Shown piece by piece: positions 1 through 4,837 of a DNA stretch of 4,837 bases. Source of the stretch: a virus (Duplodnaviria > Heunggongvirae > Uroviricota > Caudoviricetes); IMG/VR virus record IMGVR_UViG_2660238126_000002, positions 1 through 4,837 of that record; one strand, given 5' to 3'. Each line of letters opens with the position of its first letter. Position 1 is the stretch's first letter. The notes below the pieces were generated by a model, which worked only from the letters and a program-made list of their open reading frames with translations, did not search any database and was not told where the DNA came from. A program made the position numbers and the translations under genes.

Positions 1-123
1 ATTTTTCCTCCATTGAATTTTATGTTTCGCATCTTAAAACAGACGAGGGAAAATAAAATGTACATGTCGCTGTTTCTGGACCCGCCTCGAGAAATTTTTA
101 TTATTTACTGTTGTGTAACAAGG

Positions 124-474
124 TTATAACGCCATCTGAGCCATTTTCTGATAATTCAATCTGTCTGCTGTATCACCGGGCAAGTGGTATTGTTTATTAC
201 GATAAAAAGCGGTGTCAGTAATCATTACGGCGGGAATATCGTGTTGCCAATAATTCAGGTGGTCAGAGAAATCAATACCGGGAATAAACCATGGGGCATT
301 CATAGAATAAACAGATAAATCCCGGGATGATAACAATGCCGTTTTTACCTGACGAACGGCGTTGATATCCTGTATTCTGCCGACCAGGCAATAAAGTCCC
401 CCCGATCGGGATAAAGCCAGGACATTGCGGGTAAGGGTAATCCTGGCTACCAGGCGCAGAGTCGTAATAGCCAA
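124..474 (-). pseudogene. M28-family zinc peptidase-like gene, C-terminal segment
   Basis: Translation contains NVLALSRSGG and then DFSDH...IPAVMITD...YHLPGDTADRLNY, matching the conserved C-terminal motifs of M28 aminopeptidases as I recall them. The expected catalytic core between the two motif groups is missing. Family assignment is by motif recall, not alignment. Confidence 0.4.
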
Positions 475-815
475 TCGGGGACGCCCTGCGCGGTAACTCT
501 GGCACCGCTACTGACAAAGAACTCTTTTATATACTCTACGGACCTATTCAGATTATCAATATTGTCGGCATTACGTGGATGCACAGTTTGTGTAAGATAA
601 CGAACTGTTTTTTCTAATTGCTCAGGACTGACGTGTCGGGGCGTTGGCGATAATGCAGTGACCCAGGGTTGGTAAAAATAATCAGAGGGAGTGAAATCAG
701 AAATAATATAACAAAAGGAGCGCGAAAATACCGTCAGCATGGTATTGCGGGCGGTCATCGTCTGCTGGTTGGTGATCCAGAAGGTTTTATAACCCGCCTG
801 TTTCATCATGTTCAT
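447..815 (-). pseudogene. Same M28-like gene, N-terminal segment in a different frame
   Basis: Translation ...RYLTQTVHPRNADNIDNLNRSVEYIKEFFVSSGARVTAQG resembles the N-terminal region of M28 peptidases. The frame is open upstream to 923 with no SD before the ATG at 815, and it overlaps the 124-474 ORF in another frame, implying a frameshift near 447-474. Confidence 0.4.
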
Positions 816-910
816 CAGCGACGGCTGCGTCAGATACAGATCCGGGTTCTTTTCATTGGCAAAGGTCAGCGNNTNTATCGCGCTGATTTGGCAATTGTGA
901 TGATAAAATA

Positions 911-929
911 AAGTGAAGTTTTTTCACTT
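911..929. promoter_or_regulatory. Perfect inverted repeat AAGTGAA-gtttt-TTCACTT, candidate operator just upstream of the HTH gene
   Basis: 7-bp arms with a 5-bp spacer read directly from the sequence, 16 bp upstream of the ATG at 945 and next to a plausible SD (aaagg at 934-938). Confidence 0.3.
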
Positions 930-944
930 TTTCAAAGGTGTTTT

Positions 945-1196
945 ATGACTGGCTGGGAACTGCGAATCTGGCGAAAAAGCATGCTCTGGTCACGCGAAAA
1001 AGCGGCCAGAGAATTTGGCGTGACGCAGAGAACATGGCACGCCTGGGAAAATGCGGAACAGGTGGACGTCACCGTCTGGAGGACCACCCAGGCACTTTCA
1101 GTCCGTGACCTGCTGCCTCACATGCAGGGGATGCGCAAGGCAGATATCATCAGGCGTCTGGAAAATGAACTGGGGGAAACGGCAGAGGATGTGTGA
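945..1196 (+). CDS. Small HTH DNA-binding protein (XRE/Cro-like), 83 aa
   Basis: ATG at 945 with SD-like aaagg 6-10 nt upstream; stop TGA at 1194-1196. The segment REKAAREFGVTQRTWHAWENA fits an HTH pattern of the XRE/Cro type. Confidence 0.6.
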   Translation: MTGWELRIWRKSMLWSREKAAREFGVTQRTWHAWENAEQVDVTVWRTTQALSVRDLLPHMQGMRKADIIRRLENELGETAEDV

Positions 1197-1207
1197 GCGT
1201 GATTCAC

Positions 1208-1228
1208 AGCCTGGCAGAATGCCAGGCT
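1208..1228. terminator. Hairpin between convergent genes (AGCCTGGCA-gaa-TGCCAGGCT)
   Basis: Perfect 9-bp stem with 3-nt loop between the HTH gene stop (1196) and the stop of the minus-strand small ORF (1227). No clear U-tract on either strand, so terminator function is inferred from position only. Confidence 0.35.
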
Positions 1229-1433
1229 ACTGCTCATCAGGAAACAGTTTTTTCAGTTCTTCACCGGAAAGTCCGGCTGCCTCCTGAATCCGTTCCGGCG
1301 TCCAGCCCATATCCCGCAGCCGGCAGGCTGCTTCCCGCGCCACTTCAAGCGCACCTTTCTTAAAACCTTCTTTAAAACCTTCGTCGAAACCTTCGTCGAA
1401 ACCTTTCTGTATAAGACGTTCTGCAATCGTCAT
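1227..1433 (-). CDS. Orphan Rpn-family C-terminal-domain-like small protein (DUF4351-type), 68 aa
   Basis: [60 protein letters not shown] matches the C-terminal tail of YhgA/Rpn-like (transposase_31) proteins: repeated (E/K)G units followed by a ...GLS.EEL segment. The N-terminal nuclease domain is absent; the frame is open only to 1511 upstream. Confidence 0.55.
1359..1406. repeat. Four tandem copies of a ~12-bp unit (aaaccttcgtcg-like) inside the small ORF
   Basis: Read directly: ttaaaaccttct / ttaaaaccttcg / tcgaaaccttcg / tcgaaacctttc, encoding the [17 protein letters not shown] repeat. Confidence 0.7.
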
Positions 1434-1456
1434 ACTGTTTTCTCTGCTCCTGCTGG

Positions 1457-1482
1457 CAAAAGGCCCGGTATTTTGCCGGGCT
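1457..1482 (-). terminator. Candidate intrinsic terminator on the minus strand
   Basis: Minus-strand read is AGCCCGG-caaaata-CCGGGCC followed by TTTTG: a GC-rich 6-bp stem plus a short U-tract. Confidence 0.4.
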
Positions 1483-1512
1483 GTGAGGTTCTCATCAGTG
1501 AATGATTTTCTT

Positions 1513-1698
1513 CAGTTCAACCTGCTCGACACCCCGGGGCACGAAGACTTCTCGGAAGATACCTATCGTACCCTGACGGCGGTGGACTGCTGCCTGATGG
1601 TTATCGACGCTGCAAAAGGTGTTGAAGATCGTACCCGTAAGCTGATGGAAGTTACCCGTCTGCGCGACACGCCGATCCTCACCTTTATGAACAAAGAC
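1513..1698 (+). pseudogene. prfC: Internal fragment of peptide chain release factor 3 gene (about 60 codons)
   Basis: Translation [59 protein letters not shown] matches the G-domain region of PrfC (about residues 78-137 by recall). Flanking residues on both sides do not match PrfC, and there is no native start or stop. Confidence 0.75.
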
Positions 1699-1882
1699 CA
1701 GCGATCGGTGAGATCGTGCCGCCCGGCGTCGATCAGGGTGATCGCGTCGTTAAACTTCACTACGCCGCTGCATGGCTGGCGGCGATACTGCGGCGAGCGC
1801 CGCGCTCTGGCGCAGGCCGCGCACTCGCAGCCCCATGCCGGAACGCCCTGTGCGCCGCCAGTGCCGGTGAGCGTGAGGGTNA

Positions 1883-2248
1883 GGCCANNTCTNCNTCTCG
1901 CATGTTCTGCATGATGATGCGACGGCGGCGGTAAGCCGGGTCCGCCAGATTCTGCGGATCTTCATCCGGCAGGCGACGCAGGGTCATCTGCGGATTCACC
2001 TCATGCTTGGGTTTGACATATCCCGGCGTAAATTCAGAGGTGGAGCCGCCACGGGAACGGATAACCTCACCGGAAACAATCGGCGAAACGTACAGCGCCA
2101 TGTTTACCAGTCCCGGAATTTGTGAGAGATAGACTTTCTCCGTGGTGAAGGGATAGCTCTCACGGAAAAAGAGACGCAGAAACAGCGGATCAAACTTAAA
2201 TTTCTGCTCATTTGCCGCCAGCAGCTGGGCGGTTGTGTACATCGACAT
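1883..2248 (-). pseudogene. E: Lambda-type major capsid protein gene, 5' fragment (first ~122 codons)
   Basis: MSMYTTAQLLAANEQKFKFDPLFLRLFFRESYPFTTEKVY...PAYRRRRIIMQNMR matches the N-terminus of lambda gpE. Similarity stops after about codon 122, at the N-containing stretch 1881-1895, and the frame continues into unrelated GC-rich sequence. Confidence 0.9.
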
Positions 2249-2268
2249 AAAAAAATCCCGTAAAAAAA

Positions 2269-2282
2269 GCCGCACAGGCGGC
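2269..2282 (-). other. Short hairpin in the D-E intergenic region, followed by a T-run on the coding strand
   Basis: Minus-strand read is GCCGC-ctgt-GCGGC then TTTTTTT (plus-strand A-run 2262-2268), ending about 14 nt before the E start codon. No SD is visible for E. Confidence 0.3.
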
Positions 2283-2303
2283 CTTTAGTGATGAAGGGTA
2301 AGG

Positions 2304-2636
2304 TTAAACGATGCTGATTGCCGTTCCGGCAAACGCGGTCCGTTTTTTCGTCTCGTCGCTGGCAGCCTCCGGCCAGAGCACATCCTCATAACGGAACGTG
2401 CCGGACTTGTAGAACGTCAGCGTGGTGCTGGTCTGGTCAGCATCAACCGCCAGAATGCCAACGGCAGTACCGTCGGTGGTGCCATCCCACGCAACCAGCT
2501 TACGGGTGGAGGTGTCCAGCATCAGCGGGGTCATTGCAGGCGCTTTCGCACTCAATCCGCCGGGCGCGGTTGCCGTATGTGCCGGGTCACTGTTGCCCAG
2601 CGGCTGGTAATGGGTAAAGGTTTCTTTGCTCGTCAT
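2304..2636 (-). CDS. D: Lambda-type head decoration protein, 110 aa, intact
   Basis: [56 protein letters not shown]...TAISIV is near-identical to lambda gpD as recalled. SD AAGGGA lies 5 nt upstream of the ATG at 2636. The 9-nt gap to the upstream stop and 55-nt gap to E match the lambda spacing I recall. Confidence 0.95.
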
Positions 2637-2645
2637 AAACATCCC

Positions 2646-3041
2646 TTACACTGGTGTGTTCAGCAAATCGTTAACGGCATCAGATGCCGGGTTACCTGCA
2701 GCCAGTGGTGCCGGTGCCCCCTGCATCAGACGATCCAGCGCAGTGTCACTGCGCGCCTGTGCACTCTGTGGTGCAGCTGCCAGAATGCGGCGGGCCGTTT
2801 CCACGGTCATACCGGGGGTTTCGGCCAGCACACGTGCCTGTTCTTCGCGTCCGTGAGCTTCCTCACAGTTGAGGATCCCCATAATGCGGCTGTTTTCTGC
2901 CGCAACCGCAGCGGTGATCTGCGCGTTCACGTCCGGCTGCGCCGCGCTGGCGTTTTCGCCCTCCGTCGCTTGCACCACGTCAGTAACGTCAGCCTGCGAA
3001 GCAGTGGCTGAAACAGTTGTTGATTGAGTCTCTTTGGTCAT
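2646..3041 (-). CDS. Nu3: Lambda-type scaffolding protein, nested in-frame in the C-like ORF, 131 aa
   Basis: Internal ATG at 3041 is preceded by a strong SD (AGGAGG, then gcgaa). Product MTKETQSTTVSATASQ...NDLLNTPV is Ala/Gln-rich and scaffold-like. It contains GGATCC at 2873-2878 and GGTTACC at 2690-2696, which I recall as lambda landmark sites. An alternative in-frame ATG exists at 3251. Confidence 0.8.
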   Translation of the reverse strand: MTKETQSTTVSATASQADVTDVVQATEGENASAAQPDVNAQITAAVAAENSRIMGILNCEEAHGREEQARVLAETPGMTVETARRILAAAPQSAQARSDTALDRLMQGAPAPLAAGNPASDAVNDLLNTPV

Positions 3042-3617
3042 TCGCCCTCCTGAGAGACGGGATTTACGTGCATCCAGTGCATCACGCATAACGGTGATCG
3101 CATCGGTGCTGTTGACAAGTTCATCAGCCAGTCCGGCATCAATGGCCTCCTGACCGCTGTACATTGCAGCCTCGGTATCCAGCACAGCCTGCACGGACAG
3201 GCCGGTATATGCCGACACCTTCTGCGCAAACATCCGGCNGGTTGCATCCATCCGGGNCTGCAGTGTCTCGCCGTCATAGGTAATCGGGTTACCGCACGCT
3301 TCCGGGTTCCAGCCCAGCAGAGCCTTAAAGAGCATCTGCCGGACATCGTCCACCACATCATACGAGGCAAACTGACCGCGCTCATCACGCCCGTTACTCA
3401 GTATGACAACCACGGAGAAGCCCTCTTTCAGCTCCTGCCAGTAGTCGGTCTGGCTTTTGTTTTCTCCCGGAGAGTCATCACCCGGTACCACATACGCCGC
3501 CGGGAGTCTCAGCTTTCCGACCTCCGGCAGATTTTTGAACTGTGCCGCGCCTGCTACCCGGTTTTCAAAATACGGGCAGCGGGCACGCAGCGCAGCAATA
3601 ACAGGCGTCAGTTTCAT
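2646..3617 (-). CDS. Chimeric ORF: non-lambda N-terminal ~110 aa joined in-frame to the C-terminal part of a lambda C-like (S49 prohead protease) gene plus Nu3
   Basis: Continuous 323-codon frame. Residues from about 110 onward (...ETLQ.RMDAT.RMFAQKVSAYTGLSVQAVLDTE...) match the lambda gpC C-terminus. Residues 1-110 (MKLTPVIAALRARCPYFENRVAGAAQ...) carry no S49 catalytic-core motif that I can recognise. The ATG at 3617 overlaps the upstream ORF stop (ATGA, 3614-3617). N bases sit at 3239 and 3257. Confidence 0.6.
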   Translation of the reverse strand: MKLTPVIAALRARCPYFENRVAGAAQFKNLPEVGKLRLPAAYVVPGDDSPGENKSQTDYWQELKEGFSVVVILSNGRDERGQFASYDVVDDVRQMLFKALLGWNPEACGNPITYDGETLQXRMDATXRMFAQKVSAYTGLSVQAVLDTEAAMYSGQEAIDAGLADELVNSTDAITVMRDALDARKSRLSGGRMTKETQSTTVSATASQADVTDVVQATEGENASAAQPDVNAQITAAVAAENSRIMGILNCEEAHGREEQARVLAETPGMTVETARRILAAAPQSAQARSDTALDRLMQGAPAPLAAGNPASDAVNDLLNTPV

Positions 3618-4018
3618 CTGTGTCGTCGCTCCGGCTTCAGTGATTTACGCAATTCCCGCGCCAGAAAATAGCGTGTCCAGCTGCGGTTCTTTTCAAGCGT
3701 TTCCACCATAAAGTTATTACGTGGAGCCAGCCGCCAGCCGCTGCCACCGGATGCACCACGATGATGACTACGACGACGTTTTGCTCCTCCCCGGACACCA
3801 AAAAACAGAAACGCCGGATAGAAGTCACCAGAGATCATCCGGTTCCCCTTCCCGTTGCGCTGGTTAGGGGCAATGCGTGTCATAAAACCGGCTCGCTTTT
3901 TACTGGCTCTCGGCACCATGTAACCAATCGAACGAGCCAGGCGTCCGGTCTGATAACCGGGGTTTTCACCCGGTGCCGACCGCGCACGGCGCATCACCAG
4001 CCGACGGGCATCACGCAT
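3614..4018 (-). CDS. Arg-rich basic ORF, 134 aa, unknown function; possibly the 3' remnant of a longer phage gene
   Basis: Only open frame on this strand here, with E. coli-like codons (cgt, ctg, ccg, ggt). Stop overlaps the downstream start (ATGA). No SD before the ATG at 4018, which sits exactly where the sequence becomes AT-rich. Frame is open upstream only to 4084 with no further ATG. Confidence 0.35.
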   Translation of the reverse strand: MRDARRLVMRRARSAPGENPGYQTGRLARSIGYMVPRASKKRAGFMTRIAPNQRNGKGNRMISGDFYPAFLFFGVRGGAKRRRSHHRGASGGSGWRLAPRNNFMVETLEKNRSWTRYFLARELRKSLKPERRHR

Positions 4019-4034
4019 ATGACGCTGACCAATC

Positions 4035-4370
4035 GTGACAAACGATAGATTTATAAAATCTTCATTACCGATCCCTGAACTATACTATCTACCACAGAGA
4101 AAATTTACTGGGATTTCTTTAAAATACAAAGGAAAAATCCCATATACACCAGCTAGTTCAAAAATGAAATGGGATATAGTACAGTCTCTTTTGCTGAAAC
4201 AAACATCCTTATTTATATCAAACAACACAATGCAAGGAAGTAGGAGGAAAAACGAGTTCATCATAAACTCAATAATATGGAAAAAAAATGAAACCTCAAA
4301 TTGCGAATATTCAATCGAAGGAGGTGTTTATGCTCTGTTTAGGTATACTGGTAAGCCTGCTGGCTATTAG
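4035..4370 (+). CDS. AT-rich ORF (111 codons from GTG), possibly the 3' remnant of an acquired gene
   Basis: Stop TAG at 4368-4370 is immediately followed by an intrinsic terminator. There is no SD at the GTG start or at internal ATGs. Lys/Asn/Ile-rich, with no recognisable domain. Confidence 0.2.
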   Translation: MTNDRFIKSSLPIPELYYLPQRKFTGISLKYKGKIPYTPASSKMKWDIVQSLLLKQTSLFISNNTMQGSRRKNEFIINSIIWKKNETSNCEYSIEGGVYALFRYTGKPAGY

Positions 4371-4497
4371 ACCCTGCTTCGGCGGGGTTTTTTTATGGGC
4401 ACGGTGCGGGGTGAGTTGTCGGATGCGCTTCGCTTATCCGACCTACAGGGGAGGATATTGTAGGCCCGGTAAACGTGGTGCCATCGGGCAAAATTAG
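4330..4497 (+). CDS. Candidate small ORF (55 aa) with a near-perfect ribosome-binding site
   Basis: AAGGAGGTG at 4318-4326, 3-nt spacer, ATG at 4330. Product begins MLCLGILVSLLAI (hydrophobic). The frame runs through the terminator hairpin and both REP units, which argues against a conventional gene. Confidence 0.2.
   Translation: MLCLGILVSLLAIRPCFGGVFLWARCGVSCRMRFAYPTYRGGYCRPGKRGAIGQN
4371..4394 (+). terminator. Rho-independent terminator, plus strand
   Basis: Stem ACCCTGC / GCGGGGT (7 bp, one G-U pair) with a TTCG loop, followed by a 7-T run (4388-4394). Confidence 0.6.
4416..4489. repeat. Two REP-like palindromic units in opposite orientation (BIME-like)
   Basis: Unit 1 around 4418-4442 is GTCGGATGCGCTTCGCTTATCCGAC, followed by CTAC. 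Unit 2 around 4460-4489 is GTAGGCCCGGTAAACGTGGTGCCATCGGGC. Both resemble the enterobacterial REP consensus (GCCGGATGCG...CTTATCCGGCCTAC) as recalled. Confidence 0.6.
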
Positions 4498-4533
4498 CTC
4501 GGAGTAACAGGTTTTGATTATTTAAGGAAGTGA

Positions 4534-4728
4534 TGGTGGTGGGGGAAGGATTACTCAACGCTGCGCGCTTCGCCCTTCGGGTCGTTGCCTGCGGCAACGC
4601 TCTCTCGCTGCAAAATGAGTCAGGGAAAACGACACAATCAGGCGCTTATCGCCCTGGCGAGACGACGCTGCGACGTTCTGTTCGCCATGATGCGCGACGG
4701 GACTTTTTATACCCCGCAGGCGTCATAA
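4534..4728 (+). mobile_element. Probable 3'-terminal remnant of an IS110-family transposase gene
   Basis: The frame ending at TAA 4726-4728 encodes ...[34 protein letters not shown]. The spacing GK-9-AR-10-RDG and the hydrophobic pattern match the conserved C-terminus of IS110/IS116/IS902 transposases as I recall it. There is no start codon or SD, and no upstream transposase body in the window. Confidence 0.4.
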
Positions 4729-4837
4729 CATGCTTGACAACTTAATAGGGGTCCCCCGCTTCAGCCCCGTAAAACGCATCTGACTCCCGCACAACACGCA
4801 CTTCAGCGGGTCAACCTTTAGTAACCTCTGATACATC

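Follow-up and report, generated by a model that had tools for sequence, protein, structure and literature searches.

The window analysed comprises the entire 4,837-bp contig CCBV01000687.1 of the draft E. coli assembly GCA_000936365.1. Alignment to the best-matching E. coli parents divides it into eleven pieces of 84–1,387 bp, each of which matches an unlinked E. coli locus perfectly or almost so; the sources are the chromosome, two plasmids, two different prophages and two IS elements (Table 1). Only three genes are intact, namely the head decoration gene D, an HTH regulator and a 68-aa ORF, while all remaining genes are truncated. Outside the clusters of N, the ~4,700 other bases contain no N and agree with their parents at essentially every position. 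The contig has neither a replication function nor a selectable one.

Table 1. Pieces, genes and N clusters of the 4,837-bp window, with identity to the best-matching E. coli parent
Feature	Position	Strand	Content	Identity and parent
Piece 1	1–719	-	yfbM-elaD region, M28-like aminopeptidase pseudogene	719/719, strain 120899 chromosome 3,933,521-3,934,239
Piece 2	720–871	-	152-bp internal fragment of eptC (phosphoethanolamine transferase CptA)	152/152, strain 120899, 2,006,269-2,006,420
N cluster 1 (NNTN)	872–875	.	fills the 4 nt between pieces, exactly at join 2	
Piece 3	876–1518	.	plasmid fragment; 3' end of hypothetical gene, last 24 nt of Rpn-family gene	643/643, O104:H4 plasmid
HTH regulator (piece 3)	945–1196	+	complete, 83 aa	
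68-aa ORF (piece 3)	1227–1433	-	complete	
Piece 4	1519–1695	+	177-bp internal fragment of prfC (release factor 3, GTPase domain); Pfam GTP_EFTU	177/177, strain 720632
Piece 5	1696–1885	-	~190 bp, 5' part of phnP	189/189 called bases, strain 120899
N cluster 2 (five N)	1881–1895	.	straddles join 5 (phnP / lambda E), 1-9 nt away	
Piece 6	1883–3269	-	lambda-like head genes: major capsid E, N-terminal ~121 codons; S49 peptidase/scaffold C-Nu3, C-terminal ~208 codons	1,381/1,381 called bases, strain S51 prophage
D (piece 6)	2304–2642		complete head decoration gene	
323-aa fusion ORF	2646–3617	-	in-frame tail-terminator N-terminus + lambda C/Nu3 C-terminus, across join 6	
N cluster 3	3239, 3257	.	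inside lambda-like piece, 30 and 12 nt before join 6 (3269/3270)	
Piece 7	3269–4044	-	fragment of unrelated, tail-sheath-encoding prophage; tail terminator, N-terminal ~116 codons	775/776, strain 135 prophage
134-aa ORF (piece 7)	3614–4018		5'-truncated gene upstream of tail terminator	
Piece 8	4045–4368	+	internal fragment of plasmid gene for HTH-domain protein	322/324, ETEC plasmid p600468_158
Piece 9	4368–4610	.	chromosomal narI-tyrT spacer + partial RtT repeat; Rfam RtT match	243/243, strain JML285
Piece 10	4610–4757	+	final ~145 nt of ISEc20 (IS110-like), to right terminus	142/142 over 4610-4751
Piece 11	4754–4837	-	IS91-family transposase gene, internal fragment to contig end	79/84, IS91 copy on plasmid CP031548

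In piece 1 the annotated gene is missing its first 11 nt; its CDS is annotated as frameshifted in the parent, and the match to Pfam Peptidase_M28 is weak, slightly under the curated cut-off. Of the places matching piece 3, 1,440 out of 1,455 lie on plasmids. Piece 6 matches Pfam Phage_cap_E and Peptidase_S49. In eight of the nine other contigs among the matches listed, an intact 186-aa tail terminator, DUF2635 and a tail sheath gene come after the 134-aa gene of piece 7, and the ninth contig stops at that gene; among the same listed matches, the present contig is the only one from GCA_000936365.1, with no second copy of the 134-aa protein. In finished genomes, neighbouring segments of the contig map to distant, unrelated loci. 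In the single genome of strain 120899, the loci of pieces 1, 2 and 5 map to 3.93, 2.01 and 1.85 Mb, which places the locus of piece 2 1.9 Mb away from that of piece 1, and phnP and prfC are 339 kb apart in strain E2863. A megablast search with the whole window, run against 5,426 complete E. coli genomes, showed that the best single place accounts for 29% of the window (piece 6 alone), and that every genome has at least four separate matching places.

The pieces meet at ten breakpoints (719/720, 871/876, 1518/1519, 1695/1696, 1882-1886, 3269/3270, 4044/4045, 4368, 4610 and 4752-4757). All are blunt joins whose microhomology, 0-4 nt, is at chance level, and they cut genes at arbitrary internal positions. 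Segment searches with neighbouring pieces found none of the ten joins in any of the 5,426 complete E. coli genomes. Moreover, GTDB representatives, IMG/VR and JGI metagenomes all lack the strings across 1695/1696 and 3269/3270, the string across the E/phnP join at 1882-1886 is missing from IMG/VR, and join 10 is absent also from PLSDB plasmids. A 122-aa chimeric ORF across join 1 was found in one contig only, that of the window, among ~15 billion proteins. Within the collections searched, the joins are not reproduced in independent assemblies. No repeat common to both parents was found at the joins, the best being chance 8-12-mers within +/-300 nt, and inspection of the parent sequences at all joins revealed no shared restriction site or linker. 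GTT|AAC, seen at join 3, stands alone and is coincidental.

Join 10 coincides with the right terminus of ISEc20, copies of which at five different sites have a common sequence that stops at AATAGGGGC[A/C]CCC; the nine remaining joins fall inside genes or IS elements. The RtT piece stops 6 nt short of the next difference between repeat copies, the core-gene pieces are without repeats, and the ISEc20 piece alone terminates at a repeat boundary. Join 10 could be a genuine IS insertion. As regards IS-mediated rearrangement, a single IS end is present, that at join 10.

Lambda-like head genes lie beside the genes of another phage type, and one ORF spans the boundary, as in lambdoid phage mosaicism. 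However, real lambdoid mosaic boundaries recur elsewhere, coincide with the borders of genes or modules and preserve the order of genes from head to tail, and none of these properties was found here: E is truncated after ~121 of its 341 codons and abuts phnP, C/Nu3 is fused inside the tail-terminator gene, and both joins are unmatched in the collections searched. On the minus strand the tail-terminator sequence stands upstream of the scaffold, D and E genes, an order not known from any real phage. As a control, the N-resolved lambda sequence to the left of join 6 was located in 88 IMG/VR contigs, all of which (88/88) continue as the lambda C gene and none of which (0/88) continues as the window does to the right of the join. 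The 323-aa ORF, with Pfam matches to Phage_tail_terminator (aa 3-121) and Peptidase_S49 (aa 117-181), is an accidental fusion.

The window contains exactly ten N, at 872, 873 and 875, at 1881, 1888, 1889, 1893 and 1895, at 3239 and at 3257, and this list agrees with the positions given by a sequence-only reading of the same DNA. Every N is 0-30 nt from a breakpoint, and three of the ten joins carry N. Random placement of three clusters with the observed spans (200,000 trials) put every member no farther than 30 nt from a junction at P = 0.0012, and the sum of the distances to the nearest junction returned P = 0.00025. The association between N and junctions, proposed in that earlier reading, is therefore real (P ~0.001). 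Since seven further junctions are N-free, every N signals a junction, but not every junction is marked by N; the junctions which that reading had placed at its three N sites all exist, but they belong to a total of ten. It had also described 872-875 as the meeting point of the M28-like gene and the HTH gene. The join to an HTH-bearing plasmid piece is real, but its left partner is the eptC fragment, the M28-like gene having ended at 719.

In cluster 1 the continuation of eptC reads CCTG and the sequence upstream in the plasmid reads TATT, with N at the three differing positions and T where both parents have T. In cluster 2 all five N fall where the parents differ, GGC at 1883-1885 is common to both, and the called bases pass from the left parent (1880 and 1882) to the right parent (from 1886 on). 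Taken together, in these two clusters 8 of 8 N occupy parent-differing positions and all parent-agreeing positions are called, although the pattern is weak as a test when the end positions that define the clusters are left out (P = 0.09). The two N of cluster 3, 3239 and 3257, correspond to G and A, respectively, in the parent, in six lambdoid relatives and in all 88 IMG/VR contigs with the flanking sequence. At N 3239 both parents have G, so that a clash between them does not account for it. All six N positions within the lambda-like piece are invariant among the six lambdoid relatives, and a reading of the N as SNPs between prophage copies was rejected on the basis of this invariance.

The proximity of N to abrupt changes of homology had been ascribed to collapsed repeats or mixed prophage copies, that is, to a misassembly in which paralogous repeats or lambdoid prophage copies were merged, leaving N at copy differences and joins within shared repeats. 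Several pieces do derive from multi-copy elements (lambdoid prophage, ISEc20, IS91, RtT repeats and plasmid DNA), and the IS terminus at join 10 is a typical repeat boundary. Nevertheless, such a collapse is very improbable, given that shared sequence is absent at every join, that the eptC, prfC and phnP pieces are single-copy core genes, and that non-phage DNA takes part in two of the three N-bearing joins (eptC with the plasmid piece, phnP with lambda E). Neither a shared repeat at a junction nor, in the lambda-like piece, an N at a copy-differing site was observed. Collapsed repeats or mixed copies are thus unsupported as the cause, because no repeat is shared and the N positions of the lambda-like piece do not vary. 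Ordinary sporadic low-quality calls that happen to lie near joins would fit the small number of clusters (three), the seven N-free joins and the position of 3239 outside the parent clash; with permutation P values of ~0.001 or lower for proximity, and with the rest of the contig N-free and parent-identical, this coincidence is extremely improbable.

A different possibility is that the contig represents a real molecule of the strain, either a locus or a small replicon, in which serial illegitimate end joining in vivo brought together fragments of chromosome, plasmid and prophage. Seven joins with a clean consensus, blunt junctions with 0-4 nt of microhomology that resemble end-joining products, and one join at an IS end are consistent with such an origin. 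However, this origin would require ten separate illegitimate joining events in 4.8 kb of DNA in E. coli, a species without classical NHEJ, and would have to account for ambiguous calls that are concentrated at the joins, suggesting disagreement between reads, as well as for the lack of any replicative or selectable function. The joins occur in none of the 5,426 complete genomes, and those scanned in other collections are absent there as well, which leaves a real molecule with very little likelihood. Its most specific form, a scrambled locus or episome produced by serial end joining of shattered fragments in a chromothripsis-like event in E. coli, with the N incidental, is similarly doubtful in the extreme.

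The contig is very probably a false end-to-end, overlap-free concatenation of unlinked E. coli fragments, and as such a sequencing or assembly artefact rather than a product of phage biology. The sequence-only reading was right to suspect an artefact, but its proposal that the mosaic is partly artefactual understates the case, as the whole contig is chained from eleven unlinked fragments. Under a false concatenation, the N would be consensus ambiguity codes, most likely a sign that reads at the joins conflict or are sparse. At clusters 1 and 2, reads from both genuine loci would overrun the false join by a few bases and contradict each other; at cluster 3, read support thinning beside the join may yield N. 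N 3239 remains a counter-point, lying outside the clash model. Masking of a contaminant or adaptor by the database was rejected as a source of the N, since it would yield contiguous runs and those observed here are scattered single N.

Chimeric draft contigs likewise have adjacent segments at unlinked loci, joins unique to one record, arbitrarily truncated genes and ambiguity codes at joins, but the present case differs in having unusually many joins (10 in 4.8 kb), all of them blunt. Graph or overlap misassemblies typically run through a shared repeat, which is absent in the window. Two origins may be envisaged for the concatenation: (i) a scaffolding or gap-closing step that concatenated short contigs without overlap; (ii) a physical ligation concatemer of sheared fragments, either amplified or captured by a single long read that was then polished with short-read data. 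A literature search on the accession and neighbouring WGS prefixes brought up nothing relevant to the sequencing and assembly method. The second origin resembles in-vitro ligation concatemers and library chimeras in its random breakpoints, blunt joins with chance-level microhomology, fragments of ~0.1-1.4 kb and lack of a linker; it differs in that a single chimeric molecule needs amplification or a long read to give a consensus this accurate. The seven clean, N-free blunt joins together with the random breakpoints lean slightly towards a physical in-vitro concatemer. Purely in silico joins should show gap characters, and seven joins are clean. Chimeras of the MDA type, which typically join nearby inverted segments via microhomology, were rejected because the parents are unlinked and the joins blunt.

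The main relevance of the contig is to data quality, CCBV01000687.1 being a chimeric record in public GenBank (GCA_000936365.1) that may be misread as phage mosaicism or as horizontal transfer of host genes into a prophage. Scattered N beside abrupt homology changes can serve in practice as a warning of false joins, and concatenation or ligation chimeras can be told from repeat-collapse misassemblies by the lack of a repeat shared across the join. Spurious fusion proteins from the contig are already present in protein collections, including the 122-aa eptC/M28-like ORF, the 323-aa tail-terminator/S49 fusion and ORFs called across the E/phnP and prfC/phnP joins.

Whole-window megablast searches showed that all 5,426 complete E. 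coli genomes match the window in at least four separate places, and that the largest share of it found in any one place in these genomes is 29%. Segment-by-segment searches, after which the best-matching genome sequences (parents) were fetched and locally aligned, resolved it into eleven consecutive pieces, and these assignments are consistent with Pfam and Rfam scans of the window. The only complete genes are D, the HTH gene and the 68-aa ORF. Very probably, unrelated fragments have been falsely strung together in this contig, and the apparent phage mosaic and the fusion ORF are artefacts.

Pieces of the window and their agreement with the parent sequence
Piece	Position	Content	Match to parent
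1	1–719	Chromosomal yfbM–elaD region with M28-like pseudogene, frameshifted in parent too	719/719
2	720–871	eptC, internal fragment	152/152
3	876–1518	Plasmid: intact 83-aa HTH regulator, intact 68-aa ORF, final 24 nt of Rpn gene	643/643
4	1519–1695	prfC, internal fragment	177/177
5	1696–1885	phnP, 5' part	No mismatch outside N
6	1883–3269	Lambda-like head genes: E codons 1 to ~121, complete D, last ~208 codons of S49 peptidase/scaffold C-Nu3	No difference besides six N
7	3269–4044	Tail-sheath-encoding prophage: N-terminal part of tail terminator and 5'-truncated upstream gene	775/776
8	4045–4368	ETEC-plasmid HTH-domain gene, internal fragment	322/324
9	4368–4610	narI–tyrT spacer including part of RtT repeat	243/243
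10	4610–~4757	ISEc20, last ~145 nt	142/142 across 4610–4751
11	4754–4837	IS91 transposase, internal fragment	79/84

The pieces are unlinked: within one genome, that of strain 120899, pieces 1, 2 and 5 map to 3.93, 2.01 and 1.85 Mb, respectively, and 339 kb separate phnP from prfC in strain E2863. Piece 3 is plasmid-borne at 1,440 of 1,455 matching places, and pieces 6 and 7 belong to two different prophage types. Segment searches of the 5,426 complete genomes, in which a join-bearing record would score above single-piece matches for every neighbouring pair, found no neighbouring pair joined in any record. Strings over the joins at 1695/1696 and 3269/3270 were not found in GTDB species representatives, IMG/VR or JGI metagenomes, nor was the E/phnP join found in IMG/VR. 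A positive control used the 39 nt to the left of 3269/3270 with Ns set to G and A; this string was found in 88 IMG/VR contigs, all of which run on as CCGG... (lambda C gene) and none as the window does. Of ten places listed for the 134-aa gene (piece 7), one is the window contig itself; in eight of the other nine, the genes that come next are an intact tail terminator (186 aa), DUF2635 and a tail sheath gene, while the ninth contig stops at the 134-aa gene. Among these ten, the 323-aa tail-terminator/S49 fusion follows it in the window contig only. The 122-aa ORF across 719/720 (447–815, minus strand) occurs, among ~15 billion catalogued proteins, in a single contig, the 4,837-bp CCBV01000687.1 of GenBank assembly GCA_000936365.1, which is the entire window. 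No mention of this accession was found in the literature.

All ten joins are blunt or have 1–4 nt assignable to either parent, as random juxtaposition would give. Over the 300 nt on either side of a join, its two parents share no similarity above chance 8–12-mers, and inspection of the parent sequences at the joins revealed no common restriction site or linker. Nine joins fall at arbitrary points inside genes or IS elements. The exception, at 4752–4757, lies at the ISEc20 right terminus as set by five copies, each at a different site (...AATAGGGGC[A/C]CCC); piece 10 stops there and adjoins internal IS91 sequence (4745–4760). This join, which was not found among 72,556 plasmids, may have arisen when ISEc20 truly inserted into an IS91-family element, or may be no more than a repeat boundary. 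The T at 4752 agrees with none of the parents.

The ten Ns (872, 873, 875, 1881, 1888, 1889, 1893, 1895, 3239 and 3257) stand exactly where the sequence-only reading had placed them and, as it had proposed, adjoin junctions: all lie 0–30 nt from the nearest join (P = 0.0012 for three same-span clusters placed at random; P = 0.00025 for summed nearest distance). The junction that it drew at 872–875 between the M28-like gene and the HTH gene does exist, but joins an eptC fragment to plasmid sequence, the M28-like piece ending 152 bp earlier. There, in NNTN, eptC continues as CCTG versus TATT upstream in the plasmid; the three Ns are the three parent mismatches and the called T is the one shared base. 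At 1881–1895, all five Ns fall on parent mismatches, all parent-agreeing positions are called, and the called bases change from left-parent to right-parent across 1883–1885. With cluster-defining positions left out, the enrichment of Ns at mismatches is only suggestive (P = 0.09). The Ns at 3239 and 3257 fall within the lambda-like piece, at 30 and 12 nt from the join. A parent clash does not account for 3239, where both parents have G; this cluster more probably reflects thin or poor read support beside the join.

The same reading had suggested collapsed repeats or mixed prophage copies as the source of the Ns. An artefact is upheld, but not by that route, which requires repeats shared across the joins, with Ns where the copies vary. 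No repeat occurs at any join, and the six N positions of the lambda-like piece are invariant in six lambdoid relatives (98–99.5% identity); wildcards at 3239 and 3257 recover the same 88 IMG/VR contigs as the G/A string. Moreover, non-phage DNA (eptC, phnP) is a partner in two of the three N-bearing joins. That the patchwork is a real molecule formed in vivo is highly improbable, since this would need ten independent illegitimate joins, none seen elsewhere in the collections searched. For a false concatenation, short contigs might have been joined without overlap by scaffolding or gap closing; alternatively, sheared fragments might have been physically ligated into a concatemer and then amplified, or such a concatemer captured in a single long read that short reads then polished. 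A physical in-vitro chimera is slightly favoured over in-silico joining because seven of the blunt joins are clean and free of N and because the breakpoints are random. The apparent mosaic is not a real biological feature, and the worth of the result lies in flagging a public record as chimeric, along with the spurious fusion proteins derived from it. The 122-aa ORF, an eptC/M28-like chimera, is now in public protein collections.

At 124–815 (minus strand), the broken reading frames of the M28-like gene of piece 1 are genuine and no part of the artefact, since the gene is already a frameshifted pseudogene in the complete parent genome (strain 120899). The best parents at 1–719, 720–871 and 1696–1885 are ETEC reference strains (Gambia, Bangladesh, Pakistan) and that of 4045–4368 is an ETEC plasmid, which suggests, from sequence matches, that an ETEC-like strain was sequenced. 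In an unrelated assembly (GCA_017978465.1, DADVZY010000088.1, 1–3493), the 134-aa gene comes straight after a lambdoid lysis cassette (Q, holin, lysozyme, Rz1) at a contig end, in place of head-completion genes; this, too, is an unusual adjacency, which may reflect mosaicism or misjoining. The 68-aa ORF (1227–1433, minus strand) has 74% nucleotide identity over 126 nt to the 3' end of the adjoining plasmid Rpn gene (2116–2241 of the compared stretch, L003) and resembles a free-standing copy of the C-terminal tail of Rpn. It holds a short repeat (10 residues), seen as a tandem 12-nt repeat near 1375–1400. The Rfam RtT match at 4534–4649 (minus strand; 49.7 bits versus a gathering score of 45) runs 39 nt beyond 4610, where piece 9 ends, and takes in bases derived from ISEc20; RtT is truncated here, and part of the alignment to the full-length model is spurious.
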